A stretch of DNA of 64,000 nt from a bacterium (GTDB lineage Bacteria > RBG-13-66-14). The position numbers and the translations under genes are program-made. The notes under the pieces were generated by a model. The model made no database searches and was not told where the DNA came from. It worked only from the letters and a program-made list of their open reading frames with translations. The stretch covers positions 4,503-68,502 of the forward strand of contig DATKYS010000051.1 in assembly GCA_035528375.1 (NCBI GenBank). Direction: 5' to 3'. Below are positions 2,485 to 54,017 of this stretch, piece by piece (the stretch's first letter is position 1; each line of letters opens with the position of its first letter).

Positions 2485-3132
2485 ATGAGGGGAATCGTCA
2501 TCCTCGTCCTGGCAGCCGCGGTCGGAGTCTGGGCCGCGGAGTGGATCACCGTGGAAGCCGACGCCGACAGCTACGTCTACTACTACAAAGATGACACCGA
2601 AGAAGAACCGCAGTACGTGGACGATAACTTCGGTGGAGAAGTAGAACTTTCCGCCTGGTACATCAATTTCTATCGGCGATACCCCTCGCTGATTCAACGA
2701 CGCTCCTTCATCTATTTCGATTTCGAGGGGATGGATCCCCAAAGTAGCGTTCTCGAAGCGATTCTGTCCCTTTACATCACCTACCTGGATTGGGGCGGTA
2801 GGTTCTGGGTGTATCGCTGCCGTGAAGCGTGGGATGAATACGAGGTCACCTGGAACGACCAACCGTGGTTTTCCGAAATTCTCGGTTCATGGGACGATAC
2901 CTTCCCCCTTTACCAGTACAGCGACGTCGCGGAGCTCAATGCCGAAGAGATAGAACTGATAGTGGATAATCCGGACGACAATAACGGTATTATCATTTTG
3001 ACCTCTGAGGACTGGAATTGTGTTGATTTCTCCTCGCGCGAAGGGGGCTTCCCGCCTCGGCTGAAACTCCTGGTCAGCGGGGCCGACGTCGTGGAGGCGA
3101 GCTGGGGGGAGATAAAGGCGGCGTTCGAGTAG
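2485..3132 (+). CDS. Secreted DNRLRE-like domain protein (paralog 1 of 3), C-terminal SWGEIKAAFE tail
   Basis: Signal peptide MRGIVILVLAAAVGVWA. Contains YVDDNFGGE and EVTWNDQPW motifs of the DNRLRE-type domain. Ends ...EASWGEIKAAFE. Confidence 0.6.
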   Translation: MRGIVILVLAAAVGVWAAEWITVEADADSYVYYYKDDTEEEPQYVDDNFGGEVELSAWYINFYRRYPSLIQRRSFIYFDFEGMDPQSSVLEAILSLYITYLDWGGRFWVYRCREAWDEYEVTWNDQPWFSEILGSWDDTFPLYQYSDVAELNAEEIELIVDNPDDNNGIIILTSEDWNCVDFSSREGGFPPRLKLLVSGADVVEASWGEIKAAFE

Positions 3133-3140
3133 GAGGAGAC

Positions 3141-3806
3141 ATGAACAGGATTTGGCTCGTTTGCGCGGTCTTCCTGGCCGCCGCGTCCGTCGCTCCGGCC
3201 ACCGAGCAGGTCGTCAAACTGGAAACAGATGGCGACAGCTATGTTTGTAGGTTTTACGAGCCGTCAGTACCCCTTGAGTTTTACGTCGACGACAACTTCG
3301 GCGATGCATGGGAGTTACATGTATCGAACACGTACACGTACATTTCGGATCCGTGGTGGATGGAAGTGCTCGAAATGGCATACATGCACTTTGATTTCTC
3401 CGGGCTCGGCGAATACGACGGCGCGGATTTGGTCGAGGCTCAACTGGTATTCAATGCCACTGATGCTGTCGAGGGAGCGGTACTCGCCGCCAAGGTGGCC
3501 GGCCCCTGGGAGGAGATGAGCATCACCTACAGAAACCGACCGCCGCGGGGCGACAGTGTGGCCTCGTTCGACATGGTCGAGGGGTACAACTACGTGGACC
3601 TCAATGTCGGCAAAATCGCGCCCTGGGTTGACGCGCCGGATTTGGCCTACGGCATCCAGCTTGACCATGGGGGGAATGGTAGTTGGGATAACTACGGGGT
3701 ATTCTGCAGCCGGGAAACCGATTCACCACCGGAGCTCTGGCTGACCTTCTCGGAGCCCGCGGTCCAGGAATCGAGCTGGGGGGAGATTAAGGCGTCATTC
3801 GAATAG
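3141..3806 (+). CDS. Secreted DNRLRE-like domain protein (paralog 2), C-terminal SWGEIKASFE tail
   Basis: Signal peptide MNRIWLVCAVFLAAASVAPA. Contains YVDDNFGDAWE. Ends ...ESSWGEIKASFE. It starts 8 nt after paralog 1 and has its own GGAGG RBS. Confidence 0.6.
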   Translation: MNRIWLVCAVFLAAASVAPATEQVVKLETDGDSYVCRFYEPSVPLEFYVDDNFGDAWELHVSNTYTYISDPWWMEVLEMAYMHFDFSGLGEYDGADLVEAQLVFNATDAVEGAVLAAKVAGPWEEMSITYRNRPPRGDSVASFDMVEGYNYVDLNVGKIAPWVDAPDLAYGIQLDHGGNGSWDNYGVFCSRETDSPPELWLTFSEPAVQESSWGEIKASFE

Positions 3807-3814
3807 GAGGCGAA

Positions 3815-4462
3815 ATGAACAACAGAGGTCGGCTCGTTTGCGCGGTCTTCCTGGCCGTCGCGACCACCGTCACGGCTACGGTCCAGGTCGTCCTGGAGGC
3901 CGACGGGGACAGCTACGTCAAATACTACGAAGAGTGGGAGAGCGACCCGGAGTACGCCGACGACAACTTCGGCGGCGAGCCTCTGATGTATGTGCTGGAT
4001 AACTATTACCAGTGGGGCGAGGAATTCGAGATACCCTTCATGCACTTCGATTTCTCGGGGCTCGGCGACTACGATGGCACGTATCTGGTCGGGGCGCAGC
4101 TCGTACTCCACGCCGCGTCTTACGCTAATGGTTTGCAGCAAGCCCACGCGGTGGGGGGCGCCTGGGAGGAGATGACCATCACATTCAACAACTGTCCGGG
4201 GGCGGGTGCCCTGTTGGCCTCCTTCTACATGGACGGTGGAGACAACTACGTGGACCTCGACATCGGCCCCATCGCGCCCTGGGTGGACGCGCCGGAAACG
4301 GCCTACGGAATCCTTATCTTTGACACCGAGCAGGTGTGGGAGGACGATCCTCCGGGGACAATCTACACCCGGGAGACCGAAAACGCGCCGGAGCTTTGGT
4401 TGACCTTCTCGGGGCCCGCGGTCGAGGGGGCGAGCTGGGGGGAGATCAAGGCGGCGTTCTAG
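3815..4462 (+). CDS. Secreted DNRLRE-like domain protein (paralog 3), C-terminal SWGEIKAAF tail
   Basis: Signal peptide MNNRGRLVCAVFLAVATTVTA. Contains YADDNFGGE. Ends ...GASWGEIKAAF. Confidence 0.6.
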   Translation: MNNRGRLVCAVFLAVATTVTATVQVVLEADGDSYVKYYEEWESDPEYADDNFGGEPLMYVLDNYYQWGEEFEIPFMHFDFSGLGDYDGTYLVGAQLVLHAASYANGLQQAHAVGGAWEEMTITFNNCPGAGALLASFYMDGGDNYVDLDIGPIAPWVDAPETAYGILIFDTEQVWEDDPPGTIYTRETENAPELWLTFSGPAVEGASWGEIKAAF

Positions 4463-4469
4463 CGGTTTT

Positions 4470-4742
4470 TTCACCCGCGGGCGACCGTGGACGGTCGCCC
4501 CTACGGGGGGCGCTGGATATTGACGTAGGGGCGGGTGTCCACACCCGCCCGTTTTTATCGACAAACCGCGATGATGTAGGGGCCGACCGACGGCGCGCCG
4601 TTCAGGTCGGCCCGCGGGCGACCGTGGACGGTCGCCCCTACGGTGAACTGCACGGTTCTAAATGTAGGGCGGGGACTTCAGTCCCCGCCGCTTTACCCCC
4701 CACCCTGACCCCCCCCAGAGGGGGGAGGGGATAGGGGAAACC
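4470..4742. repeat. REP-like palindromic element cluster (GTAGGGGCGACCGTCCACGGTCGCCCCTAC, GTAGGGGCGGGTGTCCACACCCGCCC, GTAGGGGCCGACC..GGTCGGCCC, GTAGGGCGGGGA..TCCCCGCC, CCCC..GGGGAGGGG units)
   Basis: Several distinct imperfect palindromes bounded by GTAG...CTAC are packed between the paralog-3 stop and the hutH stop. Confidence 0.8.
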
Positions 4743-4743
4743 G

Positions 4744-6264
4744 TCAGTCCAGCGGGCCGATGACCCCCTCGGCGGCCGCCAGTATCGCCCCCGAGCGCAC
4801 CAACTCGGCCATCTCGTTATTGTCGGCGTAGAGCGGCCGGTCCTCGTCCAGGTGCGCCACGTGCTCCCGGACCAGCCCGTAAACGGCTTTAGTGGCCGGG
4901 GCGAACTCGGTGTCGCGGAAATCGCGCGCCTGGCAGGCGGCCATGATTTCGATTCCCAGCACGCCGGGCACGAGGTCCATTATCTGGCGCGTCTTCAGGG
5001 CGGTGGTCCAGCCCATCGAGACGAAGTCCTCCTGGTCCGCCGCGGCGGGGATGCTGCCCACGGCCGCCGGCGTCGAGAGCACCCGACACTCGCAGATCAT
5101 GGCCCCGGCGGTGTACTGGGCCAGCATCAACCCGGAGAACATCCCGCCGCCGTGGGTCAGGAACCCGGGCAGCCCCGCCGACAGCGCGGGGTTCATCAGG
5201 CGGTTGATGCGCCGCTCGGCGAGGACCGCCGCCGTCACCACGCCCATCGAGGCGTACTCCAGGGCCAGGGCCATGGGCGTGCCCTGGAAGTTGGCCCCGG
5301 CGACGACCTCGTCGTCCTCGGGGAAGAAGACCGGGTTGTCGCCGACGCCGTTGAGCTCGGTGAGGAATACCTCGCGGGCGTGGGCCAGGGCGGTGCGGGC
5401 CGGACCGGCGGACTGGGGCGTCGAACGCAGGGAGTACGCGTCCTGGACCTTTTTGCCCGGACGCATCAAAAGCGGCGACCCTTCGGTCAGCCGCCGGACG
5501 TTTTTCGCCACCGTGATCGAGCCCCCGTGCCCCCGGACGCGGTGCAGCCTTTCGTCGTAGCCCGACATGTTGACGTTGAGGACCTCGAGGGTCATGGCGG
5601 CGGCCACGTCCTGGGTCTTGAGCCAGGTCTCCATCTCCAACAACAGAAGCGAACCCAGGCCGTTGATGAAGTTGGAGCCGTTGATGGAGGCCAGGCCGTC
5701 GCGGGCCTCGTAGGCGATGACCGGCACACCGGCCCGGCGCATCGCCTCGGCCCCGGGCAGCCGCTCGCCCCCGTAGAACGCCTCCCCCTCGCCCATCGCC
5801 ACCAGCGCCATCTGACCCATGGGCGACAGGTCACCCGAGGCCCCCACGGACCCCCGGGTGCAGACCACCGGGGTCACCCCGGCGTTGAGCATGGCAGCCA
5901 TGGTCTCCGGCACCTCGCGCCGGCAGCCGGAATTGCCGTGGACCAGCACGTTTATCCGGCCGGTCATCGCCGCCCGCACCCACGGCTCGGGCATGGGCTC
6001 CCCGATTCCCGCCGCGTGCGAGTAGATCAGATACCGCTGGAAATCACGGGTCTGCTCCGGCGTGAGCACCGTCTCGGAGAACTCGCCGATGCCCGTGGTC
6101 ACCCCGTACATGACCTCGCGGTTTTTTATCTTGACCTCGCACATGGCCCGGCAGCGGTCCACGCGCTCCAGGGCCTCGGGGGGAATCTCCACCCGCTCGC
6201 GGCCCACCGCGACGGCCTTCAGCCGCTCGAGGGTGAGGTTCTCGCCGCTGAGGATGACGGGCAT
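4744..6264 (-). CDS. hutH: Histidine ammonia-lyase (MIO-dependent aromatic amino-acid lyase family)
   Basis: MPVILSGENLTLERL... with the MIO-forming motif GSVGASGDLSPMG. GGAGAG RBS is 4 nt upstream of the ATG at 6264. The 800-aa ORF in the track is an upstream in-frame read-through of this gene. Confidence 0.9.
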   Translation of the reverse strand: MPVILSGENLTLERLKAVAVGRERVEIPPEALERVDRCRAMCEVKIKNREVMYGVTTGIGEFSETVLTPEQTRDFQRYLIYSHAAGIGEPMPEPWVRAAMTGRINVLVHGNSGCRREVPETMAAMLNAGVTPVVCTRGSVGASGDLSPMGQMALVAMGEGEAFYGGERLPGAEAMRRAGVPVIAYEARDGLASINGSNFINGLGSLLLLEMETWLKTQDVAAAMTLEVLNVNMSGYDERLHRVRGHGGSITVAKNVRRLTEGSPLLMRPGKKVQDAYSLRSTPQSAGPARTALAHAREVFLTELNGVGDNPVFFPEDDEVVAGANFQGTPMALALEYASMGVVTAAVLAERRINRLMNPALSAGLPGFLTHGGGMFSGLMLAQYTAGAMICECRVLSTPAAVGSIPAAADQEDFVSMGWTTALKTRQIMDLVPGVLGIEIMAACQARDFRDTEFAPATKAVYGLVREHVAHLDEDRPLYADNNEMAELVRSGAILAAAEGVIGPLD

Positions 6265-6343
6265 CGGCTCTCCTTGTGCGTCGGTTACCGGGGGATGATA
6301 CACCGAACCGGGCGTCCGCTCAAGCCCGAACGACCGCCCGCGA

Positions 6344-6374
6344 TGTGAAAAACGGGGCGGCCTGCACCGCCCCG
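6344..6374 (-). terminator. Rho-independent terminator downstream of the flavodiiron gene
   Basis: Plus-strand gaaaaaCGGGGCGGcctgcaCCGCCCCG. On the minus strand this is a GC stem followed by TTTTTC. Confidence 0.55.
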
Positions 6375-6389
6375 TGACGCGGATTTTTC

Positions 6390-7568
6390 CTATTTCAACC
6401 CGGCTTCCCCGTGCTTTTCCGCCACGGTATCGGCCAGGCGGTCCAGGGCCTCGAAATCGGCCTTCCCGGCCAGCCCCTTGGCCAGCACCGGTTCGAGCAC
6501 CTCGACCTTCAGGTTGGGGATGAGGGAAGCCAGGGTCTCCACCGTCTTGCCGCCCCAGCCGTAGGAGCCGACTATGGAGAGGAACCGCGCCTTCGGCCGC
6601 AGCGCGTTGGCCAGAAGAGTCGCGTAGGCCGCCAGCGGGTGGGGACCGGCGAGGACCGTCGGCGTGCCGACGATTATCGTCGCGGCGTCCACCAGGGACA
6701 TCGCCAGCGCCCCGATGTCCACCGAGGCCAGATCGAAGCGCTCCACCCGCACCCCGCGCTCCGCCAGGCCCGCCGTGAGGTGATTGACCATCTCCAGGGT
6801 GCTCCCGTGCATCGAGACGAAGGGCAGCACCGCGATGTTCTTCGGCTCGCCGTTCACCCACCCGTCGTAGGCCTTGACGATGACCTCCGGCCGGGAGTGA
6901 ATCGGGCCGTGGCTCGGCGCGATGAGCTTGAATTCGTAGGGCTCCAGCTTCTTCAGATTCTTCGCGATGATACCGGCGAAGGGCATCATAATCTCGGCGT
7001 AGTACCGCTTGGCCGGACCGGCCACCACCCGCTCCCCGTCGGCGTAGAGCTCGCTCGTCGCCAGGTGCGAGCCGAAGAAATCGCAACTGAAGAGGATTTT
7101 GTCCTCCTCGAGGTAGGTCACGAAGGTCTCCGGCCAGTGGACCCACGGCGTGTAGATGAACTTGAGCGTCTTGCCGCCCAGGTCCAGCGTCTCCCCGTCG
7201 GCCACCACCTTGAACCGCTCCTCCGGGACCCGCAGGAGGTCCATGAGCATCCCCTTGGCCCTCTCGGAGGTGACGAGCTTCGCGTCGGGGAACATCGCCA
7301 AAACGTCGGGGATGGAGCCGGAGTGGTCCTGCTCGGCGTGGTGGGCGACGAGGTAGTCCAGGCGCTTTACGCCCTCGAGCTGTTCGAGAAGGATGCCCCT
7401 CATCGGCGGGTCAACCGTGTCCAGGAGGACGGTCTTGTCGCGCCCGCGGACGAGGTAGGCGTTGTAACTTGTGCCGTCGGGCAGGGGGATGAGCTGGTCG
7501 AAGAGCCGGCGGTCCCAGTCCACGGCGCCGAGCCAGTGCACGTTTTCGGTAATCTTGCGCGGTTTCAT
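6390..7568 (-). CDS. Flavodiiron protein (metallo-beta-lactamase-like diiron domain + flavodoxin domain; O2/NO reductase)
   Basis: MKPRKITENVHWLGAVDWDRRLFDQ..., H-x-H-x-D-H motif YLVAHHAEQDHSGS, and a C-terminal flavodoxin-like domain. AAGGGAGG RBS before the ATG at 7568. Confidence 0.85.
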   Translation of the reverse strand: MKPRKITENVHWLGAVDWDRRLFDQLIPLPDGTSYNAYLVRGRDKTVLLDTVDPPMRGILLEQLEGVKRLDYLVAHHAEQDHSGSIPDVLAMFPDAKLVTSERAKGMLMDLLRVPEERFKVVADGETLDLGGKTLKFIYTPWVHWPETFVTYLEEDKILFSCDFFGSHLATSELYADGERVVAGPAKRYYAEIMMPFAGIIAKNLKKLEPYEFKLIAPSHGPIHSRPEVIVKAYDGWVNGEPKNIAVLPFVSMHGSTLEMVNHLTAGLAERGVRVERFDLASVDIGALAMSLVDAATIIVGTPTVLAGPHPLAAYATLLANALRPKARFLSIVGSYGWGGKTVETLASLIPNLKVEVLEPVLAKGLAGKADFEALDRLADTVAEKHGEAGLK

Positions 7569-7619
7569 GGGCCTCCCTTGATTGAATATTTCGCTTTCGA
7601 CACACCGATATTCTAGCAC

Positions 7620-8110
7620 AGATATTCCGACTGCTCAAGTCGGCTATTTGCCGACCGAATCCCCCGACGGTTTTTATACGCGGTAAGGTTGAACAGCCGT
7701 AGGGCGGGGACTCCTTTCCCCGCCGTTTTTTTTAAGGAAGCCCTCACCCCCATCCCCTCTCCCGGAGGGAGAGGGGGGCCGCTTCGACCCTCACCCCAAG
7801 CTGCGATGATGTAGGGGCGGGTCTTTAGACCCGCCCGCGGGCCGACATGAACGGCGCGCCGTCGGTCGGCCCCTACGAGGTTGACGCGCGATTCACACCT
7901 TAGCCGTAGGGGCGGGTGTCCACACCCGCCCGTTCGTTGCATCGGAGTGACTCAAAAGTAGGGCGGGGATTCCCATCCCCGCCGCGTTTTTTATAAGGTG
8001 GCCCTCACCCCCATCCCCTCTCCCGGAGGGAGAGGGGGACCGCTACACCCCCCTCCCCGGCCCGTAGGCAAGCCACTCCCCAAAGGGGAGAGGGGGAATA
8101 AGGCAGACCT
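7620..8110. repeat. Large REP-like palindromic element cluster (at least 8 units of 4 families, including two CCCTCACCCCCATCCCCTCTCCCGGAGGGAGAGGGG units)
   Basis: Contains gtagggcggggactcctttccccgcc, gtaggggcgggtctttagacccgccc, gtaggggcgggtgtccacacccgccc, gtagggcggggattcccatccccgcc and cccctctcccggagggagaggggg twice. Confidence 0.8.
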
Positions 8111-8171
8111 CCCACGGGGGGAGGGAAGCTTGGTATAATCACCCGGCAATCGAGCACCTGCGGAAACCCCC

Positions 8172-9395
8172 ATGACCGGACTCGCCGACCTCTTGAAAAA
8201 CGTCGTCTCCGACTGGCGGCGCAACCTCATGCGCAGCATCCTCACCGCGCTGGGCATCGTCATCGCCGTGATGACGGTGGTGACGATTCTGGCGCTGGTC
8301 GGCGGCCTGGACAGCTTCGTGCGCGAGGAGATAGGCGCTCTGGGGGCCAACAGCTTCATCATCAGCCGCACGGGCGTCATCCAGAGCGAGGAGGACTGGC
8401 TCGAGGCCGCCAAGCGTCCGCGAATCACCGACGCCGAGTACTCCTCCCTCGTCCGCAGGCTCAAGGGACGGTATCTCTACGCCTCGCCGCAGGTGCGGAG
8501 CTGGCTCAACATCGAGGCCGGGGGGAAGGAGCTGCGCTACATCCGGACCTTTGGGGTGGGCGCCGACATGTACAACATCAACGAGCGTCCGCTCGAGGAG
8601 GGGAGGTACTTCACCGAGGCCGAGGTCGCCCGGCGGAGGCCGGTGACGGTCCTGGGCTACGAGGTGGCCGGTGAGCTCTTCAGCGGCCTCGACCCCCTGG
8701 GCCGCGAGGTGCGCATCGGCGGGAGGCCCTTCACCGTGGTGGGCGTGTACGCGGAGCAGGGCCGGCTCATGGGCCAGTCCACCGACGACTTCGCCGACAT
8801 CCCCTACTCCACCTTCCGCAAGTACTACGGCTTCCGCAGCCCGGTGAGCATCTACCTCCGCGCGCGCTCCCAGGAGGAGGTCTCCGAGCTATCGTACGAG
8901 GCCCAGCAGGCGTTCCGCACCGTCCGCCACCTGGCGCCCGGGGAGCCGGACAACTTCGGCGTCGTCTCCGAGAAGCTCCTGGTGTCCGTCTTCGAGCAGA
9001 TGACCGGCGTCATCTTCGGCGTGATGATTGTAGTGGGCGGCATCAGCCTCCTGGTGGGCGGCATCGGCATCATGAACGTGATGCTGGTGGCCGTGAGCGA
9101 AAGGACGCGGGAGATAGGCATCCGCAAGGCGGTGGGGGCGCGGCGCTCGGACATCCTGCGCCAGTTCCTCACCGAGGCGCTCCTGGTGACGGTGGTGGGC
9201 GGGGTCATCGGGGTGGGGCTGGGGGCGCTGGTGGCCAACCTCATCGGGGGCGCGGTGGAGCTGCCCGTCGAGGTTTCCGCCGGCTCCGTGGCGCTGGCCA
9301 TGATCTTCTGCGGGGTGGTGGGGGTGAGCTTCGGCATATTCCCGGCGCTCAAGGCCGCCCGCCTGGACCCCATCGTCGCGCTGCAGAAGACGTAG
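8172..9395 (+). CDS. ABC transporter permease, MacB/FtsX family (periplasmic MacB-PCD + 4 TM FtsX domain)
   Basis: N-terminal TM helix, a roughly 200-aa periplasmic domain, then an FtsX-like 3-TM bundle with ...SERTREIGIRKAVGARRSDILRQFLTEA.... No ATPase or MFP gene is adjacent. Confidence 0.8.
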   Translation: MTGLADLLKNVVSDWRRNLMRSILTALGIVIAVMTVVTILALVGGLDSFVREEIGALGANSFIISRTGVIQSEEDWLEAAKRPRITDAEYSSLVRRLKGRYLYASPQVRSWLNIEAGGKELRYIRTFGVGADMYNINERPLEEGRYFTEAEVARRRPVTVLGYEVAGELFSGLDPLGREVRIGGRPFTVVGVYAEQGRLMGQSTDDFADIPYSTFRKYYGFRSPVSIYLRARSQEEVSELSYEAQQAFRTVRHLAPGEPDNFGVVSEKLLVSVFEQMTGVIFGVMIVVGGISLLVGGIGIMNVMLVAVSERTREIGIRKAVGARRSDILRQFLTEALLVTVVGGVIGVGLGALVANLIGGAVELPVEVSAGSVALAMIFCGVVGVSFGIFPALKAARLDPIVALQKT

Positions 9396-9399
9396 GGAC

Positions 9400-9700
9400 G
9401 GTTTTTCCCGAATGTAGGGCGGGGGGTTTTTTCCCCGCCTTTTTATAAGGTAGCCCTCACCCTATCCCTCTCCCACAGGGAGAGGGGACCGCGCCGACCC
9501 TCACCCGCGGATTGCGACGACGTAGGGGCGGGTATCCACACCCGCCCGTTTTTGCCCCTCACCCTAGCCCTCTCCCCAGAGGGGAGAGGGGACACGCGGC
9601 AACCCTAATCCCGACCCTCTCCTAAATGTAGGCGGGGATTTTAACCGAGCGAAGCGAGCTATGCCCCCGGCAAATCCCCGCCGTTTTTTAACGACCATCC
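9400..9700. repeat. REP-like palindromic element cluster
   Basis: Contains gtagggcggggggttttttccccgcc, ccctctcccacagggagagggg, gtaggggcgggtatccacacccgccc, ccctctccccagaggggagagggg and gtaggcggggattttaacc. Confidence 0.75.
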
Positions 9701-9710
9701 CCTCCGTTTT

Positions 9711-10212
9711 TTACCGGCCCACGGTCACCAGCCCCCGCATCGCCGCCAGCTTCCCCTCCCCGATCCCCTCCACCCGCAGCAAGTCGTCAACGGAGGAATA
9801 GGGCCTCCCCGCGATGATTCTGCGCGACAGCACCTCGCCGATGCCCGGCAGCCTTTCGAGCTCCCAGGCCGGGGCGCGGTTCAAATCGAACGGCCCCGTC
9901 GGTTCCGCCCGGGACCCGAGCCAGCGGCGGTCGAACCAGACCAGCGCCGGCAGGCCCGGCGTCACCCGGGGCAGCGAGGCGGCGAGAGCGGGTTCGCCCC
10001 CGGCCCGGCGGTAGATGTAGGCCAGATCGGGTGTGGTCCCCCGGAGGAAGGGGTAGGCGCCGGGACGGGCCACGGCGTCACCGAAGACGAAGGCGTAGTC
10101 CACCGCGGGTTTTTCACCCGGGGGCGGGGGATGGGGCTGGTCGAGGAGGATGAAGAGGGCCGCCGCGAGGGCGAGCGCGACCACGGCGGCGGTTTCGGCG
10201 CGGCCGATCAAC
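9711..10212 (-). CDS. ComEA-like helix-hairpin-helix DNA-binding protein (N-terminal TM anchor); start codon uncertain (possible TTG overlapping the TPR stop)
   Basis: C-terminal ...FDLNRAPAWELERLPGIGEVLSRRIIAGRPYSSVDDLLRVEGIGEGKLAAMRGLV is a tandem HhH (ComEA) motif. TM helix AAVVALALAAALFILL. The ATG-initiated 251-aa ORF in the track has an implausible N-terminal extension that overlaps the TPR gene. Confidence 0.55.
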
Positions 10213-11131
10213 GCTCCAGCTCGGCGACGGCGGCGACGTTGTGGGGGTCCAGGACGAGCACCCGTTCCCAGAGCTCGCGGGCCTCCGCGTCCCGGTCCGT
10301 GGCCCTGAGCCACTTGGTGACAATCTGGACCAAATTGTTGTCCAGGCGGCCGCGCTCGAGCATGGCCCGGGTCGCCTCCAGGGCGGCGGGGAAATCGCCC
10401 TGCCGGACCGAGACTATGCCCACGGCCCGCCAGGCGGAACCGCTCCCCGTCTGGTCGGCGCACCACCGCCCGGCCAGTTCCTGGGCCGGGATCAGCTCAT
10501 CCTTCTCGTAGTAAATCTCGAACAGCGGCTCGAAGGCGTAAGCGAAGGAGGGGTTGAGCTCCAGCGTACGCTCGAAGGCGCTCTGGGCCTCGTCCTTGAT
10601 GTCATTGAACAGGGCGGCCATGCCGTGGAGGTAGTGGTAGTCGGGTCGGGCGGGGTCGAGGTCCACCAGGCGCCGGGTGAGCGGCAACGCCTCGAGCGTG
10701 TCGCCCTGCTGGAGGAGGCTCTCGGCCAGACCGGCCAGGACCGGCGGGTTGTCCGGCAACAGCTTGTCGGACATGCGGAACATCTCCACCGCGTTGCCGT
10801 AATCCCTCACGTACTTGAAGATTATCCCGAGGTTCTGGAGGAAGATGGGGTCGCCCTGGTATTCGCCGATGAGCGGCTGGAGGAGGCGGAGCGCTTCCTC
10901 GTACCGGCCCCGGGCCAGCGCCACCTGCCCCAGACCGTTAATCGCCGCCGGGTAGCCCGGCTCGAGCTCCAGGGCCCGGTTGAAAGAGACCACCGCGTCC
11001 TCGTAGTTCCCCTCGCGCAGCGCCACGTTCCCGTCGCCCACCAGCTCCAGGGCCGAGTCGCCGACCGCCGGGGCAACGAGAACCAGGAGCGTGAAAAGAA
11101 CTTTTATCGCGGGGTCGCCCATACCCTTCAC
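10208..11131 (-). CDS. Secreted TPR-repeat protein
   Basis: Signal peptide MKGMGDPAIKVLFTLLVLVAPAVG followed by multiple 34-aa TPR-like repeats (...YEDAVVSFNRALELEPGY..., ...YEEALRLLQPLI...). Confidence 0.7.
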   Translation of the reverse strand: MKGMGDPAIKVLFTLLVLVAPAVGDSALELVGDGNVALREGNYEDAVVSFNRALELEPGYPAAINGLGQVALARGRYEEALRLLQPLIGEYQGDPIFLQNLGIIFKYVRDYGNAVEMFRMSDKLLPDNPPVLAGLAESLLQQGDTLEALPLTRRLVDLDPARPDYHYLHGMAALFNDIKDEAQSAFERTLELNPSFAYAFEPLFEIYYEKDELIPAQELAGRWCADQTGSGSAWRAVGIVSVRQGDFPAALEATRAMLERGRLDNNLVQIVTKWLRATDRDAEARELWERVLVLDPHNVAAVAELER

Positions 11132-11433
11132 TCTTCCAGTTGCGCGGCCAGGAGCCTTTCGACCTCCTCCGCCGTCAGGCCGGTGACGGCGGCGAGCTTG
11201 TCCCGGCTCCCGAACCCCCGTACCAACTCGACCCGGTTCCGGGGGATTCCCAACAGTTCGGCCAGGAGCCCCACCGCCTCGGCGTTGGCCCGACCGTCGA
11301 GAGGCGGGCTTTTCAGGCGGAGCTTCAGCGCCCCGCCGTGGAGGCCGGCCGGCCCGGCGCGTCGCGACCGCGGCTGGACGTGGAGCGGGACCAGCGCGCG
11401 TCCGGACGCGTCCTCGCCGACCTTAAGGGGCAC
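11128..11433 (-). CDS. DUF167/YggU-family protein
   Basis: 101 aa with ...LKLRLKSPPLDGRANAEAVGLLAELLGIPRNRVELVRGFGSRDK..., the YggU signature. It overlaps its neighbours by 4-11 nt. Confidence 0.65.
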   Translation of the reverse strand: MPLKVGEDASGRALVPLHVQPRSRRAGPAGLHGGALKLRLKSPPLDGRANAEAVGLLAELLGIPRNRVELVRGFGSRDKLAAVTGLTAEEVERLLAAQLEE

Positions 11434-11965
11434 GGCCCGCGTCTTCGGGATTATCCAGGTCCAGCTCCACGGGCACCTCCGGCGCGGGTCGCACCGGCCG
11501 CGGGGAATTCTTGTAGCCGCGGAGCTCCAGCTCGTCGAGGAGGTTCATCTGGGCCTGCAGGAAGGCCCGCATCTCGGTGATGTACACCAGACGCTGCTGG
11601 CTCAGCTGGGCCAGCTCGGCCTTGATCTCGTCGCGGCGGCGCTGGGCTTCCATGATCAGCTCCTCCGCCCGGAGCTCGGCCTCCCGGATGATCAGGTCGC
11701 GCTTACTCTCGGCGTTCTTGGTCATGTCCTCGGAGGCCTGGGTGGCCGCCATCAGCGTCTTCTCGATGCTCTTCTCCAGGCGGCGGTACTCGCCCAGGGA
11801 AGCCTCCAGCCCCTTGAGCTGGTCCCGGAGCTTGGTGTTGTCCTGGTGCACGTGCTCCAGCTCGTCGGCCACCCGCTCGAGGAAGGCGTCCACCTCCTCG
11901 ACGGTGTAGCCCCGCACCGAGCGGTTGAATTCCTGGCGGTGGATGTCCTGCGGCGTAATCCTCAC
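11423..11965 (-). CDS. divIVA: DivIVA-domain cell-division protein
   Basis: N-terminus MRITPQDIHRQEFNRSVRGYTVEEVDAFLERVADELE is the canonical DivIVA N-domain, followed by a coiled coil. Confidence 0.8.
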   Translation of the reverse strand: MRITPQDIHRQEFNRSVRGYTVEEVDAFLERVADELEHVHQDNTKLRDQLKGLEASLGEYRRLEKSIEKTLMAATQASEDMTKNAESKRDLIIREAELRAEELIMEAQRRRDEIKAELAQLSQQRLVYITEMRAFLQAQMNLLDELELRGYKNSPRPVRPAPEVPVELDLDNPEDAGRAP

Positions 11966-12157
11966 CGGCGGCTCCTGGTCTGTGGTGGAAAGAGAGGTTT
12001 AAGTTTCCATAATTATAGGCCCATCCGGGTCGCATGACAAGCCGCGGGCGTCAAAAAGGGTCCCCGCGCCGGCTTCCCCCTCTCCCCGTGGGTGGCCTGC
12101 AGTGTCTCCCCTCTCCCTGTGGGAGCGGCGCGCCGACGGGACGGGGTGAGGGCTTCC

Positions 12158-12526
12158 TTATTCCAAATATTTCGCTATCTCCGCCAACACAGCATCAATA
12201 TTCGCCAAGACATCATTACACCAGAACCGCAAAACAGTAATTCCCTGCCCCCTCAAAAACTCATCCCTCCGCCGATCATACTCCGCCTGTTCCGGTTGCG
12301 CATGTTGCCCGCCATCCACTTCCACCGCCAGGTCAGCCTCCGAGCAGAAGAAATCCAAGATGTAATTGCCGGTTACGTGCTGACGGCGGAACTTGGCCTT
12401 TATCAGTCGGCGGTCCCGCAAGAGACGCCAGAGCTTTCTCTCGGCTAGGGTCAGGTTCCGCCGCAGGGAGCGGGAGTGCTCGACCAGCTTGGGGGGCAGT
12501 TCGCCCTGTGGATGATGCAGAGACAT
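12158..12526 (-). CDS. DUF559 (Vsr-like very-short-patch endonuclease fold) protein
   Basis: ...LTLAERKLWRLLRDRRLIKAKFRRQHVTGNYILDFFCSEADLAVEVDGGQHAQ...DRRRDEFLRGQGITVLRFWCNDV. The distal part is AT-richer than its surroundings. The N-terminal extension in the track overlaps a REP element, so the start is set at MSLHHPQ. Confidence 0.65.
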   Translation of the reverse strand: MSLHHPQGELPPKLVEHSRSLRRNLTLAERKLWRLLRDRRLIKAKFRRQHVTGNYILDFFCSEADLAVEVDGGQHAQPEQAEYDRRRDEFLRGQGITVLRFWCNDVLANIDAVLAEIAKYLE

Positions 12527-12529
12527 TTT

Positions 12530-12680
12530 TATAAGGAAGCCCTCACCCCGGCCCTCTCCCACAGGGAGAGGGAGACGTAGGGCGGCCCCGTAGGACGAGT
12601 CCTCTGCGGGCCGCTTCGTTCACCCCCCTCCCTGGCCCGTAGGCACGCCTCCCCCCAGTGGGGGGAGGGGATTGCGGCGG
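12530..12680. repeat. REP-like palindromic elements
   Basis: ccctctcccacagggagaggg and ccccccagtggggggagggg units flank gtagggcggcccc. Confidence 0.7.
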
Positions 12681-12683
12681 CCC

Positions 12684-13382
12684 TCACCACCCGCCGCCCC
12701 GGGCCAGGTCGTGCCACTCGCCCAGAAAGCCCATGAAGGTCCGGCAGAAGCGGAACATCTCCACCGCCTCCTCCAGCCAGCCCCGCCGGTCGAGCCAGTC
12801 GCCGGGCTCCCGGGGCGCGTAGGTCACCAGCCCCTTGTAGAGGAAGAGGTCGGGGTGGGGCAGATCGAGCCCCCGGGCCTCGGGGGGCGCGCGCTTGAGC
12901 TGGGGCGCCGAGAGGGGATACTTTTCCGAAACGCGGGACACCTCGTCGCCGAACCGCCGGTTGATCCCCGGGTCGGCCACCCAGCTCCGGTAGGCGCGGA
13001 CGGCGGCCGGGGACGGCGCGTACCACCCGTTGGTCCAGAAAACCTCGTCCGTGGCAAAGTGGAGGTAGAGGCAGGGACTGTCCGAGCGGTCGCCCCGGTA
13101 GATCAGGAGGCCCAGGTGGGTCTTGTACGGCGACTTGTCCTTGGAGAAGCGCACGTCGCGGTTGACCCGGTAGAGGCTTTTATTGACCCGCGGGTCGGCG
13201 ACGTAGCCCGGGTAAAGCGACCCGATCCGCCCCCAGACCCAGCCCAGAATCTCCCGCAGGGCCGGGACCAGGACGTAGTCGTAGTAGTGCCGGTTCTCCT
13301 CGAACCAGCTCCGGGCGTTGTTGCGGGCGAGGTCCCGGAGGAACTCTATCCCCGCGGAGGGGAAAACGGGGTGCCCGGCCAT
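12684..13382 (-). CDS. DUF2461-family protein (TIGR02453-like)
   Basis: ...YVADPRVNKSLYRVNRDVRFSKDKSPYKTHLGLLI... is the signature of this conserved hypothetical family. Confidence 0.65.
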   Translation of the reverse strand: MAGHPVFPSAGIEFLRDLARNNARSWFEENRHYYDYVLVPALREILGWVWGRIGSLYPGYVADPRVNKSLYRVNRDVRFSKDKSPYKTHLGLLIYRGDRSDSPCLYLHFATDEVFWTNGWYAPSPAAVRAYRSWVADPGINRRFGDEVSRVSEKYPLSAPQLKRAPPEARGLDLPHPDLFLYKGLVTYAPREPGDWLDRRGWLEEAVEMFRFCRTFMGFLGEWHDLARGGGW

Positions 13383-13543
13383 GTGTGCTCCCGTCGTCGG
13401 CTACCGTATCATTTTAACCCGGCTGCGCCGCCCTGTCAGCCCGGTCTACCGTATCGGCCGTCCTTGGTTTATAATGACCGAAAAGCTCACCCACCACTTT
13501 CCCGGTGCAGACGAGCTGCGCCACCGACCGGAGGCCGGAGAAG

Positions 13544-46903: not shown

Positions 46904-46910
46904 CGGTTTT

Positions 46911-49411: not shown

Positions 49412-49414
49412 GGC

Positions 49415-49700: not shown

Positions 49701-49750
49701 ACTCTTAAAAAAAACCGGCCGCAGGGCCGTTCTCTTTTACAGGCTCTCGT

Positions 49751-49936
49751 TCAAGGTTGTGGAATCCCCAGGTCGGCGCATATCTTCTTCGCCAATGTAT
49801 CGCTGATCCCGGTGTGCCTGGGGACCGTGGACATCTTTCCCGTCGTCGCATTCACGAATACGCTGTGCTTACCACCCTCGCGTTTCAGAAGGCACCCGGA
49901 CCCGATCAAATGCTGGATCAGATCCCGGCGTTTCAT
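49751..49936 (-). CDS. hicA: HicA-family mRNA interferase toxin
   Basis: MKRRDLIQHLIGSGCLLKREGGKHSVFVNATTGKMSTVPRH... is the HicA/YcfA fold signature. Confidence 0.8.
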   Translation of the reverse strand: MKRRDLIQHLIGSGCLLKREGGKHSVFVNATTGKMSTVPRHTGISDTLAKKICADLGIPQP

Positions 49937-50202
49937 GCCGTCAGCTGCAAGGGTTCCCGGATAACCTCAGTATTCTCCAATCGTTTTTCCGCTTCCTCCC
50001 GGTAGCACTCCAGCAACAGCCGGACCGCGTCGAGAAGATTCTCCCGGGCCTCTTCGAGGGTCGCGCCCTGGGTGTTCGCGCCGGGAAGCTCTTCCACGAA
50101 GGCGATATAGCCTTCCGGCACTTTCTGAAAAACAGCGGTCAGCTGCACTTTCATCTCCGCTCCTCCATCCGCCGGACGAAACCTGGGTACAGTATAGCTC
50201 AT
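49933..50202 (-). CDS. hicB: HicB-family antitoxin (UPF0150)
   Basis: ...KVPEGYIAFVEELPGANTQGATLEEARENLLDAVRLLLE... It overlaps hicA by 4 nt and lies upstream of it. Confidence 0.7.
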   Translation of the reverse strand: MSYTVPRFRPADGGAEMKVQLTAVFQKVPEGYIAFVEELPGANTQGATLEEARENLLDAVRLLLECYREEAEKRLENTEVIREPLQLTA

Positions 50203-50214
50203 TTTTCAACCAAG

Positions 50215-50320
50215 CGGCTGGTTTTACCCCTCACCCTAGCCCGTAGGCGAGCCTCCCCCCAAAGGGGGGAGGGGACAAGCGACCCTCACCCCAGCCCGTT
50301 CCGACAAACGGCCCCGGTTT
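50215..50320. repeat. REP-like palindromic elements
   Basis: ccctcaccctagcccgtaggcgagcctccccccaaaggggggagggga. Confidence 0.65.
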
Positions 50321-50377
50321 GACTCACCGCGGGGCGGGGGCTATAATGCCCCGGCGGTCAGCCTTCGCGGGGGATTT

Positions 50378-51385: not shown

Positions 51386-51394
51386 TCGCGACCT

Positions 51395-51760
51395 TTCCCT
51401 AAATGTAGGGCGGGGACTTCTGTCCCCGCCGCCGGCCCCGACCCTCACCCCGGCCCGTCGGCGAGCCGCTCCCTAGAAGGGAGAGGGGGCCGTCGCACCC
51501 TTTATCCGCGCCTGCGATAACGTAGGGCGGCCCCTCTGCGGGCCGCCGCGAATTGCAATGACGTAGGGGCCGACCGACGGCGCGCCGTTCAGGTCGGCCC
51601 GTCTCGACATGGTGCCCGTAGGGCGGGGAACCGAGAGAAGCGAGCTATGCGAAGCAAATCCTTTCCCCGCCGTTTTCACGTTCCCGGCCCCGACCCTCAC
51701 CCTATCCCTCTCCCTAAAAGGGAGAGGGGGTCGTCCGCGGGCGTCTTTTTGTTCCCCCCG
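51395..51760. repeat. REP-like palindromic element cluster
   Basis: gtagggcggggacttctgtccccgcc, ccctagaagggagaggggg, gtagggcggcccctctgcgggccgcc, gtaggggccgaccgacggcgcgccgttcaggtcggcccg and ccctctccctaaaagggagaggggg. Confidence 0.8.
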
Positions 51761-51769
51761 AGTATCGGA

Positions 51770-52873
51770 TTAAAACTCCGCCTTGACGGCGCCCCAACTC
51801 GTCTGCACCACGTTGAGCTCCTCGGTGGTAAAGCTCCAGACGAAGTCGTATCTCATCTCACGACCGGTACGATCCGCCAGGCAACCGTCCACGGTGCAGG
51901 TGATGAGGTCCACCGGCAGGTCCTCGTCGGGGGTGAATGTGCAGACGACATCGGTCCAGTCGCTGTCATCAATCACGAGCGTTCCCGGAATCTCGCCCGC
52001 GGGCCGGGGATTACAGCTCGTCGAGAGGGAAGACGAACCGGCGCGCAGGGCTCTGTCTCCCGATCGCCGCGACTGGTCCTCCGCCGTGAAGACTATCGTG
52101 GAAACTTCAATTCCAAACATCCCGCTGCAACAGTGGAACACGATGTCCCTGCCCACCGGCACGTCGGATTCCCCGTCATCGGGGTCCATGCCCTCCACCC
52201 AAGGTCGGGGGGAGGTATCGTACCCTATCGCGAATTTGATGGCGTTGTTGTAGAGCACCCAGCCGTCGCCGTCCCAAAAGTGGTAGTCACCGGGGCACAG
52301 GTTGACGGCGGCAGCGAAGCACCATTCACTGACCGCCACCATGTCGGTGCCGTTTTCCAGGTCGGCGATCCAGATAGCGCCGCTCTCCGTCGAGATGTAC
52401 TGCCAGTAGTTGATGTGGGAAATGCTCGAAACGCCGTCCATGATGCCCCAGTAATCTTCGTAATCGCCCAGGCGGGTGCTGGAGTGATAGGTGTAGCCGC
52501 GGGTCAGGGGGCAGTAGTCAGGGTCGCTGGCGTAACGGCCGGCGATGCCCCAGCTGCCCGAGTCGTGAGCGAAGCAGCAGGATACGACGCCGCCGTAGTA
52601 GTCTAAGTAGTCGGCCAGGTTATTCCCGAAGGCCGTGGGGTCGTCGTAGGCGTAGTTGCTCCACGTGAAGACGACGCCGTAATCGTTCAGGGTGTCCATG
52701 CTGGGGGTGGTCGTGGTGCAGTCCAGGAATGTAACGCTGTCGTAGTAGGGGTCGCCGCCGATGTAGGTTTGGGCGTCCGAGGTTGCGCCGGGGTCGGTGT
52801 GGCAGATCAAGATGTCGTACCGCCCCGCGATAGCCGCGGTAACGACCACCAAGACTAACAACGCTCTTCGCAT
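51770..52873 (-). CDS. Secreted protein of unknown function with Ig-like C-region and C-terminal ...QTSWGAVKAEF tail (paralog A)
   Basis: Signal peptide MRRALLVLVVVTAAIAG. Ends ...FVWSFTTEELNVVQTSWGAVKAEF. Confidence 0.6.
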   Translation of the reverse strand: MRRALLVLVVVTAAIAGRYDILICHTDPGATSDAQTYIGGDPYYDSVTFLDCTTTTPSMDTLNDYGVVFTWSNYAYDDPTAFGNNLADYLDYYGGVVSCCFAHDSGSWGIAGRYASDPDYCPLTRGYTYHSSTRLGDYEDYWGIMDGVSSISHINYWQYISTESGAIWIADLENGTDMVAVSEWCFAAAVNLCPGDYHFWDGDGWVLYNNAIKFAIGYDTSPRPWVEGMDPDDGESDVPVGRDIVFHCCSGMFGIEVSTIVFTAEDQSRRSGDRALRAGSSSLSTSCNPRPAGEIPGTLVIDDSDWTDVVCTFTPDEDLPVDLITCTVDGCLADRTGREMRYDFVWSFTTEELNVVQTSWGAVKAEF

Positions 52874-52907
52874 TTTCTCCTCCTTTGGTTGAACGTTCCC
52901 GGATTAT

Positions 52908-54017
52908 TTAAAACTCCGCCTTGATGGCCCCCCAACTCGTCTGCACCACGTTGAGCTCCTCGGTGGTAAAGCTCCAGACGAAGTCCTCCTCCATCTCGAT
53001 ATCGTAGCGGTTGGCCAGGCCGGCGGCGACGGTGCAGGTGATGGCGTCGTCGCCGTTCAGCGGATCGGCGGGGGTGAAGGTGCAGACGACATCCCTGGGG
53101 TCGGTGTCGTCCAGGTCCAGGTCGCCGGCGATCGAGCGGGCGGACTCGAAGTTGGCGCTGATGGCGGCGCTGGCGCTCACCGCACGGCCACCGGAGAGGG
53201 TGGTGTCGCGGGCGGTGAAGTCAATCGTATCCAGGTCAATGGCGAAGAAGTCATCCACGCAGTGAAAGACGATGTTGGTGTCCACCGGCACGCCGGTGTC
53301 CCCGTCGTCGGGGTCCATGCCGGTCACGTAAGGCGGATCATTCGGTATCCAGTAGTTCGTGAGCACGTTCTCCCACAGTTGCTGCTCCTGGCCGCCGCCG
53401 ATGAAGCTCTCATACAGGCCGGTGACGACACCCATGCCGTTCTCCGCCTCCAGAATACCAGCCTGGCCGGCGGTCTCGGTCGCGGTCCAACCGGTCACCG
53501 GGTGAGCGGTGGTCCACGGGTAGCGGTGGTGATAGACGCTTAAGCCCCAGCCGTGGTCGTCCAGTGTCCACGAGGTGATGCCATAGGTGAAGGCGTGGCC
53601 CAGATCCCAGCAGTAGTGGGACGCGGTGAAGACCATCGAGGTCGGGTTGCCGACCCCCATGGCCGTCTCGAGGGCGTCGTTGTAGCTGCCGTGCGCGTAC
53701 CAGTCGAAGTAGTGCAGCTTTGCGAAGTCGTTGTACCAGTTCGTCAGGGCGGTGTAGTCGCTGGTGGTGTAGCTGGTGTAGTTAATTGCGGCGACGATGC
53801 ACATATCCCAGTCGCCGCCTGTCAGGCTGGATATGAAGGTGGACCAGGTGCTGCCATCGTAGTACGTGGCGGAGCAACTCGGCCACAGGTCGCTTATCGC
53901 GCTGGAGAGGTAGCTGCCGCCGTACGCAGTGTCGTACTTGACGATTATGTTGTCGGGGTCCTGCCCCATCGAAGCCAGTACCAACAGAGACCACAGTATT
54001 ATCAACGCCTTGCGCAT
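52908..54017 (-). CDS. Secreted paralog B with the same C-terminal ...QTSWGAIKAEF tail
   Basis: Signal peptide MRKALIILWSLLVLASMG. The last 25 aa are almost identical to paralog A. Confidence 0.6.
   Translation of the reverse strand: MRKALIILWSLLVLASMGQDPDNIIVKYDTAYGGSYLSSAISDLWPSCSATYYDGSTWSTFISSLTGGDWDMCIVAAINYTSYTTSDYTALTNWYNDFAKLHYFDWYAHGSYNDALETAMGVGNPTSMVFTASHYCWDLGHAFTYGITSWTLDDHGWGLSVYHHRYPWTTAHPVTGWTATETAGQAGILEAENGMGVVTGLYESFIGGGQEQQLWENVLTNYWIPNDPPYVTGMDPDDGDTGVPVDTNIVFHCVDDFFAIDLDTIDFTARDTTLSGGRAVSASAAISANFESARSIAGDLDLDDTDPRDVVCTFTPADPLNGDDAITCTVAAGLANRYDIEMEEDFVWSFTTEELNVVQTSWGAIKAEF

Follow-up and report, generated by a model that had tools for sequence, protein, structure and literature searches.

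Why should secreted proteins of unrelated build end in almost the same few residues? This question is raised by a 64,000-nucleotide stretch of bacterial DNA (contig DATKYS010000051.1 of assembly GCA_035528375.1, positions 4,503 to 68,502), referred to here in its whole length as the window, in which five genes (W1 to W5) encode proteins with closely similar C-terminal tails. The closest named relative of the contig is Candidatus Coatesbacteria RBG_13_66_14. The window encodes LpxK and a lipid A acyltransferase, indicating that the organism is a diderm with lipopolysaccharide. An initial annotation of the window had proposed the tail as a new sorting or recognition tag, and the five open reading frames (ORFs) with tail-type endings were found where it had placed them. 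The endings, which it had called identical, are only similar and follow the pattern SWG[EA][IV]KA[AES]F(E). Moreover, the conserved unit covers about 14 residues instead of about 10, and includes a near-invariant valine located five residues ahead of the tryptophan. The tail is indeed terminal, but its aromatic residue is not always the last one: an extra glutamate follows in two of the five copies.

Translating the window in all six frames gives the motif WG.[IVLM]K six times. Five of these occurrences are the ends of W1 to W5, three to four residues from the stop codon, and the sixth is an 8-residue stop-to-stop fragment. Given the residue frequencies of the window, chance would yield 0.9 occurrences in total, and 0.036 located three to four residues from a stop. 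The five copies differ by synonymous codons (ATA, ATT or ATC for Ile; GGG or GGC for Gly; AGC or AGT for Ser; TTC or TTT for Phe; GTC or GTG for Val), indicating that the peptide, and not a DNA element, is under selection. After removal of the last 14 residues, W1-W3 displayed no significant similarity to W4 and W5 (E > 0.9). The upstream domains are thus unrelated, as first proposed, between the trio and the pair, but not within the pair: W4 and W5 have a Big_5 region in common (53% identity) and nothing else, their N-terminal parts of about 220 residues being mutually unrelated. The Sec signal peptides assigned to all five proteins were recovered, the N-termini being type I-like and without lipobox according to a crude rule (not a trained predictor).

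Conservation and spread of the motif

The conserved unit can be written [PA]-V-[EQ]-x-x-[ST]-W-G-x-[IV]-K-A-x-[FY], followed by 0 to 3 residues. For the positions that are fixed in the scan pattern described below, we relied on homologs of W5 and of the DNRLRE proteins, both sets being gathered by full-length similarity and not by the motif. In the first set, 102 of the 109 proteins end in [ST]WGx[IV]KAx[FY]; Gly363 and Lys366 are invariant in the alignment, and Val357, Trp362, Ile365 and Ala367 are conserved to at least 90%. Ser-Trp-Gly, Ile-Lys-Ala and the upstream valine are all invariant in the DNRLRE set. At positions left free by the pattern, a family-weighted profile showed Pro or Ala six residues before the tryptophan (0.71) and Glu four residues before it (0.44), and no conservation more than nine residues upstream.

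Variation within families is limited. The glycine may be replaced by Ala (SWAKIKAQF) and the alanine by Ser, Thr, Asp or Gly, and the terminal aromatic may be followed by E, Q, R, N, W, KY, NK or LLP. The variable positions of the motif differ between lineages; position +6, for example, is often Glu or Gln in Coatesbacteria and Latescibacterota. All three stop codons are used (TAG 55, TAA 33, TGA 18). When a loosened motif was sought in about 5,000 ORF segments from tailed loci, 159 of 177 occurrences were located 3 to 5 residues before a stop. Internal occurrences were chance-like, with the exception of one internally duplicated lipoprotein. This Eisenbacteria-type protein (loci L070, minus strand, a 444-residue ORF, and L032) has the lipobox LVGGC and two tandem repeats ending in ...GRxEDATWG[RS]IK.... 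Its first motif copy is internal and degenerate, and the second forms the protein end plus one Trp. As the motif closes both repeats, the tail was duplicated along with its domain.

The spread of the motif was assayed by a DNA pattern scan of the GTDB species-representative genomes. The 36-bit degenerate pattern V-x4-[ST]-W-G-x-[IV]-K-A-x-[FY]-stop is expected to match about 17 times by chance in 596 Gb; it was found at least 136 times, in at least 120 stretches. All but about five of the matches listed are the ends of ORFs of 115 to 572 residues (median 300) with signal-peptide-like N-termini. By the crude rule, 87 of 106 tailed ORFs have a signal peptide, most of the others being explained by a wrong choice of start; a lipobox is rare. 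The taxon labels of these records are those of the submitters. Among the matches listed, the labels of metagenome-assembled genomes (MAGs) include Coatesbacteria, Eisenbacteria/Eiseniibacteriota, Latescibacterota, Krumholzibacteriota and Gemmatimonadota; one short contig is labelled "Woeseia" and many records only "uncultured bacterium". Four Coatesbacteria-type MAGs contain at least 24, 19, 13 and 13 tailed proteins, and other genomes at least one to three. The present 64-kb window has five tailed genes.

A variant with Leu or Phe in place of the tryptophan was first met in three homologs. A second scan, on metagenome contigs, used the pattern V-x4-S-L-G-K-[IV]-K-x-L-Y-K-stop and returned 35 stretches on contigs of 37 to 69% G+C, with 55 tailed genes in those loci. 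The ending of this variant is V-[EA]-P-x-S-[LF]-G-[RK]-[IV]-K-[AGS]-L-[YF]-[KR], for example SLGRVKALYK. The genes often form arrays of four to eight paralogs, and arrays of six to eight tailed paralogs were found. Two of the stretches were deposited as candidate division Zixibacteria. Both variants are covered by the broader motif [PA]-V-[EQ]-x-x-[ST]-[W/L/F]-G-x-[IV]-K-[A/G/S]-x-[F/Y], then 0 to 3 residues. Because the Leu/Phe variant ends genes in other loci, the window tail is, to judge from these sequences, the dialect of one lineage within a broader family of terminal motifs. The finding is therefore real, not due to chance, and considerably broader than the window alone showed.

Folded domains and diversity of the cargo

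A C-terminal motif might simply be the last strand of a domain. This was not the case here. The NCBIfam DNRLRE_dom and Pfam CBM96 models stop at residues 194-202 of the 215-221 residues of W1-W3, and the Big_5 model (PF13205) at residues 350-352 of the 367-369 residues of W4 and W5, the match in W4 being weak (E 0.0048, under the Pfam cut-off). Domain models from Pfam and NCBIfam thus end 15 to 20 residues short of the proteins' ends. The tail belongs neither to the DNRLRE/CBM96 fold (NF033679, PF24517) nor to the Big_5 fold (PF13205), and some tailed proteins have no Big_5 domain at all.

Structure prediction leads to the same picture. The AlphaFold2 model of W3 has a mean predicted local distance difference test (pLDDT) score of 84 and a predicted template-modelling score of 0.80; its last strand covers residues 193-199, and the tail (200-215) is coil with a pLDDT of 44-51. 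For W5, modelled from a 78-sequence alignment, the mean pLDDT is 71 and that of the immunoglobulin (Ig)-like domain is above 90. The last Ig strand (346-353) is followed by coil (354-361) and by a short helix (362-368) at a pLDDT of about 77. In neither model does the tail form a strand. On a helical wheel, Trp (0°), Lys (40°), Ile (300°) and Phe (340°) fall on one face, Gly and Ala flank this conserved face, and the two variable positions (200° and 240°) lie opposite, an arrangement consistent with the helix of the W5 model. According to these models, the tail is a flexible appendage on two unrelated folds and the final strand of neither.

The proteins that carry the tail are diverse. With their last 15 residues removed, the at least 120 tailed proteins fell into 29 single-linkage BLAST clusters. 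Among 20 cluster representatives submitted to Pfam, 18 had no family, one was a CHRD protein and one was weakly SusE-like. Other cargo includes CBM96/DNRLRE, Big_5, F5/8-type-C, PD40 and NHL-repeat proteins, as well as a CBM9-like family of about 297 residues from Latescibacterota and Gemmatimonadota, in which 46 of 50 homologs are tailed. The cargo is small and consists mostly of beta-rich modules of the binding type, not of enzymes. Seemingly untailed paralogs in tailed families were either cut by the ends of loci or had slightly degenerate tails. The tail is accordingly not confined to two paralog families of one genome: its 29 cargo clusters come from MAGs of five phyla or more, to which the Zixibacteria-labelled Leu/Phe dialect is added.

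The relationship between tail and domain could be followed for the DNRLRE proteins. A word-indexed search returned 24 close relatives, and every intact one is tailed. An exhaustive profile search with DNRLRE plus tail detected 7,762 relatives at E ≤ 0.001, the best 146 of which were sorted by their C-termini. About 35 of these 146 have no tail and finish precisely with the domain's last strand (…SRE…P.L.I…). About 40, mostly long proteins of the Bacteroidota style, end in a domain resembling the type A C-terminal domain (CTD) of the type IX secretion system, T9SS (…G.YF.….K[IL][IV][KR]). The tail or a degenerate form of it is present on only 5 to 7 small proteins of the 146. The domain is therefore complete without the tail, and the tail fills the position that the T9SS CTD has in other lineages. 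Together with the domain models and the AlphaFold2 strands, which precede the tail, the untailed relatives show that the tail does not form the last strand of a known domain.

The two kinds of ending co-exist. The window encodes an 879-residue protein with a Peptidase_C13 domain (legumain/GPI-transamidase clan), a MAM-like domain and a Por_Secre_tail (PF18962 match at residues 801-877); it follows that the T9SS is in use in this organism next to the short tail. This protein is also, in itself, a surface-directed clan CD protease. CHU_C/FlgD_ig proteins are likewise present beside tails in Latescibacterota and Eisenbacteria loci.

Known sorting signals and gene neighbourhoods

No tag described in the databases and literature searched corresponds to the motif. 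No Pfam or NCBIfam model covers the tail in whole proteins, and isolated tail peptides of 25 to 31 residues gave no match to either collection at E ≤ 10, including the CTERM models. A search of PDB sequences with the tail profile returned chance internal matches only, and Foldseek with the whole AlphaFold2 model returned generic Ig folds only. The source annotations of tailed proteins are "hypothetical protein", "Ig-like domain-containing protein" or "DNRLRE domain-containing protein". The motif strings were absent from about 8 million full texts, and the literature searched did not link sorting signals to these phyla; the few papers that mention Coatesbacteria are metagenome surveys. The tail is thus an undescribed cross-phylum family of C-terminal motifs, with an architecture unlike any described one.

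This architecture can be compared with the seven attributes of small C-terminal sorting domains listed by Haft in the myxosortase paper (bioRxiv 10.1101/2023.06.07.544157). The tail has five of them: it sits at the terminus, recurs within a genome, keeps three or more near-invariant residues, and is found on proteins that have signal peptides and are otherwise unrelated. It lacks the other two, a transmembrane helix after the motif and a terminal cluster of two to five basic residues, the Trp dialect having no such residues there and the Leu/Phe dialect a lone K or R. In LPXTG/sortase, PEP-CTERM/exosortase, GlyGly-CTERM/rhombosortase, MYXO-CTERM/myxosortase and PGF-CTERM/archaeosortase, the motif is followed by a transmembrane segment and then by basic residues, whereas here the motif itself ends the protein. 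The tail had been set apart from the PEP-CTERM type at the outset, and the missing transmembrane segment, basic cluster and CTERM match bear this out. Intramembrane proteases are not recurrent near tailed genes either: two Rce1-like proteins were found among 112 neighbours, and the 25 leading families among the other 106 included none.

Like the T9SS CTD, the tail is a C-terminal addition to Sec-exported proteins of the FCB (Fibrobacteres-Chlorobi-Bacteroidetes) group, in the same position on DNRLRE/CBM96 relatives. However, the CTD (type A, Por_Secre_tail/TIGR04183; type B, CHU_C) folds into a beta-sandwich of about 75 to 100 residues, while the tail has about 14 and is unstructured or helical. 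Neither the tails nor the tailed proteins match PF18962/TIGR04183 or PF13585 or have any sequence similarity to them, so that the contrast with the CTD drawn at the outset holds. The proteins differ in size as well, with a median of 300 residues for tailed proteins, while CTD proteins of the same loci mostly have 500 to 900. In its modularity the tail recalls dockerins, which are C-terminal appendages on many unrelated secreted proteins, often carbohydrate-binding or Ig-like. A dockerin, however, is a folded Ca-binding domain of about 70 residues with known cohesins, whereas the tail has 14 residues; the likeness is the functional analogy on which the docking reading draws. KDEL/HDEL and the peroxisomal targeting signal -SKL (PTS1) are also very short, cargo-independent linear motifs outside the fold, but they are eukaryotic, serve other compartments, have known receptors and require an exact terminal register, which the tail does not keep.

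Neighbourhoods were compared by BLAST clustering of all ORFs in about 120 loci and by Pfam analysis of 218 genes (112 + 106) within 3 kb of tailed genes. The neighbours of both dialects, annotated maps around two paralog arrays and the gene map of the window were also compared. Only T9SS-CTD proteins, tetratricopeptide-repeat proteins, lineage-specific operon partners, housekeeping genes and antisense shadow ORFs were recurrent. The step from the motif to a dedicated protease, sortase or receptor is unsupported, none of the genes around tailed ones being a recurrent candidate. As for other sorting signals, any machinery is evidently encoded away from the tailed genes. The interpretation as a tag is consequently supported in part, for a terminal modular motif on unrelated cargo but not for dedicated machinery.

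Three sets of neighbours deserve description (see the table below for their coordinates). Between the T9SS peptidase gene and W4, two adjacent genes encode retropepsin-like (Asp_protease_2) proteins, the larger of which has a C-terminal PDZ domain. Such a combination of domains is unusual among bacterial envelope proteases. The two genes were rejected as dedicated machinery, not being recurrent near tailed genes elsewhere. Adjoining W4 and W5 is a cluster for a Kbl-type glycine C-acetyltransferase, an 84-residue acyl carrier protein (ACP), a 287-residue protein of no assigned family, an Acs-like AMP-binding enzyme and AcpS. A Kbl-ACP-Acs cluster adjoins tailed genes in Coatesbacteria-type MAGs, and the trio was also found, with 65-70% identity, inside an array of eight tailed paralogs of another cargo family in a Zixibacteria-labelled MAG. 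A sphingolipid-type cluster was considered and rejected, the aminotransferase being above the NCBIfam cut-off for glycine C-acetyltransferase, which indicates ordinary metabolism. That the cluster adjoins tailed genes in both lineages probably reflects a conserved order of genes. Finally, a protein of about 907 residues is always encoded directly upstream of one or two tailed CBM9-like genes in Latescibacterota and Gemmatimonadota. It has no Pfam, NCBIfam or PDB relative and is missing from the Coatesbacteria loci. CHU_C/FlgD_ig T9SS proteins and ATP-binding cassette sugar-transporter genes lie nearby, and the locus may be a polysaccharide-utilisation-like one. The predicted mature CBM9-like proteins start with His (AQA|HEPPGE, VQA|HDNG).

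The window holds two further features around these genes. A sensor kinase gene adjoins the gene for the T9SS-type C13 peptidase and is divergent from it. The space separating the protease pair from W4 and W5 holds a small gene for a HicA-like toxin, with its partner beside it. As regards the assembly, the first 14.7 kb or so of the window are on k141_2951805 of ENA assembly ERZ27256828 and the remainder on k141_2324757. An 84,340-bp NCBI contig carries proteins from both parts (1-14700 and 14700-64000), so that the join near 14700 is supported by this other assembly and not by ERZ27256828.

Tailed genes, tails and neighbouring features. Positions are those of the window, except for the last two rows, where they are those of the locus named.
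Feature	Positions	Strand	Basis or remark
W1 gene, 215-residue secreted DNRLRE/CBM96 protein	2485..3132	+	NF033679 DNRLRE_dom residues 43-194; PF24517 CBM96 residues 23-190
W1 tail VVEASWGEIKAAFE, residues 202-215	3088..3129	+	past end of domain model; ORF ends ...ASWGEIKAAFE
W2 gene, 221-residue secreted DNRLRE/CBM96 paralog	3141..3806	+	domain models; identity 50% to W3, 28% to W1
W2 tail VQESSWGEIKASFE, residues 208-221	3762..3803	+	ORF ends ...SSWGEIKASFE
W3 gene, 215-residue secreted DNRLRE/CBM96 paralog	3815..4462	+	domain models; AlphaFold2 model
W3 tail VEGASWGEIKAAF, residues 203-215	4421..4459	+	ORF ends ...ASWGEIKAAF
CHASE2-PAS-HisKA-HATPase sensor kinase, 878 residues	38516..41155	-	
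Peptidase_C13, MAM-like domain, Por_Secre_tail, 879 residues	41370..44009	+	
Retropepsin-like (Asp_protease_2) protein, 528 residues	45317..46903	-	
Retropepsin-like (Asp_protease_2) protein with C-terminal PDZ, 631 residues	46911..48806	-	
HicA-like toxin gene and adjacent 73-residue partner	49751..50154		
W4 gene, 367-residue secreted protein: N-terminal domain of no assigned family, Big_5 Ig-like domain, tail	51770..52873	-	Big_5 residues 224-350
W4 tail VVQTSWGAVKAEF, residues 355-367	51773..51811	-	ORF ends ...TSWGAVKAEF
W5 gene, 369-residue secreted protein: alpha/beta N-terminal domain, Big_5 Ig-like domain, tail	52908..54017	-	Big_5 residues 226-352
W5 tail VVQTSWGAIKAEF, residues 357-369	52911..52949	-	ORF ends ...TSWGAIKAEF
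Kbl, ACP, 287-residue protein, Acs-like enzyme, AcpS	54402..59606	-	
Kbl-ACP-Acs cluster elsewhere, locus L161	14181..17449		also L130, L005, L106
Protein of about 907 residues upstream of CBM9-like genes, locus L021	1860..4595	-	also L031, L035, L037 and about 10 more Latescibacterota/Gemmatimonadota loci

How the tail might be read

The tail is exposed, flexible, independent of its cargo, conserved across phyla and confined to Sec-exported proteins of diderms. These properties together point to recognition in trans by a common component of the envelope. From the sequences, we consider it about an even call that the tail serves as a linear tag for the sorting or docking of Sec-exported proteins and is recognised in trans, with a receptor, an adaptor or a processing enzyme as the predicted reader. 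The signal peptide would carry the protein over the inner membrane and the cargo domain would fold, the tail remaining outside the fold on a short linker rich in Pro, Gly and Ser. A common envelope component could then bind the tail in trans, probably as a short helix exposing Trp/Leu, Ile/Val, Lys and Phe/Tyr on one face. Candidates for this reader would be an outer-membrane or cell-surface receptor, an adaptor or a processing enzyme. The cargo might be held on a surface or outer-membrane structure, the tail having the role of a mini-dockerin, or it might be passed on for a second sorting step. Since the cargo is small and of the binding type, we favour retention on such a structure slightly over onward secretion. 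The invariant lysine could serve in a salt bridge or as a site of covalent chemistry.

Several points weigh against this proposal. Its second half, the reader, is entirely hypothetical, and we infer both that the tail is read in trans and who might read it, as well as any cleavage. No receptor, protease or transporter gene was recurrent beside tailed genes in about 160 loci. The helical hydrophobic moment of the tail is not significant when compared with shuffled sequences, and the AlphaFold2 helix is only of moderate confidence in W5 and missing in W3. In the scan set, conservation at the positions fixed by the pattern is forced by the pattern itself. The distribution is an incomplete lower bound, with labels that come from submitters.

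Other explanations of the same observations were weighed. The tail could be the C-terminal ligand of a periplasmic PDZ protease (Prc/CtpA-like, DegS/DegP-like or the Asp-protease-PDZ protein of the window), acting as a degron, a stress signal or a trimmed propeptide. Its flexible, exposed end in A-x-[FY] is similar to class II PDZ ligands and to the DegS-activating YxF-COOH, and the retropepsin-like protease with a PDZ domain is encoded about 3 kb from W4 and W5. PDZ binding, however, needs a free carboxylate in a fixed register, whereas 0 to 3 residues follow the aromatic here (E for two of the window tails, K/R across the Leu dialect, elsewhere Q, W, NK, KY or LLP), and conservation reaches 13 residues upstream, beyond the footprint of a PDZ domain. 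The Asp_protease and PDZ families were not recurrent among the 218 neighbours of tailed genes, and we know of no precedent for an encoded degron on at least 20 unrelated secreted proteins per genome; this explanation is unlikely. A terminal aromatic, with the alternation G-I-A-F, also recalls the C-terminal Phe of outer-membrane proteins and the pilin C-termini bound by PapD, so that the tail might act like a beta-signal, adding itself as a strand to a barrel of the outer membrane (an Omp85 such as BamA, or a partner barrel) or to a chaperone of the periplasm. The beta-type moment (170 degrees) is somewhat above the helical one (p 0.03-0.1 for several tails), and the 907-residue protein encoded before the CBM9-like genes could be an outer-membrane protein. 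But that protein has no detectable family and is not in Coatesbacteria loci, the cargo is made of soluble beta-sandwich, propeller and Ig or jelly-roll domains and not of beta-barrels, AlphaFold2 never gives a strand, and one to three residues often follow the aromatic. The invariant Trp-Gly and Lys are not known to belong to the published beta-signal consensus, and the upstream P-V-E also falls outside it. The idea of an outer-membrane insertion signal, put forward initially, is weakened by this unfixed register of the free C-terminus, and a strand of this kind has rather little probability.

A short amphipathic helix might instead anchor the proteins in the plane of the membrane, like the C-terminal helices of PBP5/6 or the membrane-targeting sequence of MinD. 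AlphaFold2 does predict a helix for WGAIKAE, the cargo has no other anchor, lipoboxes being rare, and a helix of the Leu dialect (SLGRVKALYK) would, on a helical-wheel reading, show a Leu/Val/Leu/Tyr face and three flanking basic residues. We find this improbable all the same: eight to nine residues are very few, the helical moment is not above that of shuffles, and position +6 is often acidic Glu, or Gln, in the lineages named above. The Wimley-White interfacial free energies of WGAIKAEF, which add up to roughly 0 kcal/mol, would leave the peptide with no intrinsic drive into the membrane. Generic anchors are, besides, not conserved residue by residue across phyla, whereas Gly and Lys of the tail are invariant and P-V-E-x-x-S/T is kept. 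Residue-wise conservation also bears on the proposal that the tail has no function in trans and is an inherited structural cap or stabiliser, spread by domain shuffling and paralog expansion. The largest expansions are indeed paralog arrays, and no machinery emerged from any neighbourhood analysis. A cap, however, would not stay the same over 14 residues on domains as different as Ig, jelly-roll, propeller and CHRD in six phyla; the tail is found in at least 29 unrelated cargo clusters, whose folds differ, and lies outside the fold at low to moderate pLDDT, and the same domain family is complete without it. Such a cap is very improbable. Lastly, a near-fixed distance to the stop codon, a length that fits the upper exit tunnel, independence from the cargo, and no need for a partner gene could all be explained by a nascent-chain arrest or termination-pausing peptide in the ribosome, for example one coupling release to Sec engagement; the motif also loosely resembles G-I-R-A-G-P in SecM. 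That all three stop codons are used, the 0 to 3 residues after the motif, and the lack of a C-terminal Pro and of an apparent regulated downstream gene argue against it. Known arrest peptides, as far as we are aware, regulate a neighbouring gene and do not occur in dozens of copies per genome, and we regard arrest as extremely unlikely.

Returning to a tag read in trans, earlier C-terminal tags led to new envelope machineries, namely sortases, exosortases, rhombosortase, myxosortases and the T9SS. The present tail matches the genomic signature of a sorting signal, yet it breaks the rule of motif, transmembrane helix and basic cluster, and it is too short for a T9SS domain. A signature without the usual architecture suggests that the reader is probably a type of component not yet linked to sorting, and a profile of the tail would make the search for this machinery testable by phylogenetic profiling. 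Somewhat short of an even chance, and thus tentatively, we propose that the tail marks a new pathway of envelope sorting or surface docking in diderm candidate phyla of the FCB group, namely Coatesbacteria, Eisenbacteria, Latescibacterota, Krumholzibacteriota, Gemmatimonadota and Zixibacteria. This pathway, with a predicted dedicated reader, would operate alongside the T9SS and handle small, mostly non-enzymatic binding proteins, the lysine being a possible site of covalent attachment.

The tail profile would be a first handle on the surface or secreted proteome of phyla known almost only from metagenomes. Tail-marked proteins number dozens per genome there and nearly all are annotated as hypothetical, and the profile would improve the annotation of thousands of such dark-matter proteins. 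If the tail is truly a docking peptide, it could also provide a compact tool for surface display.

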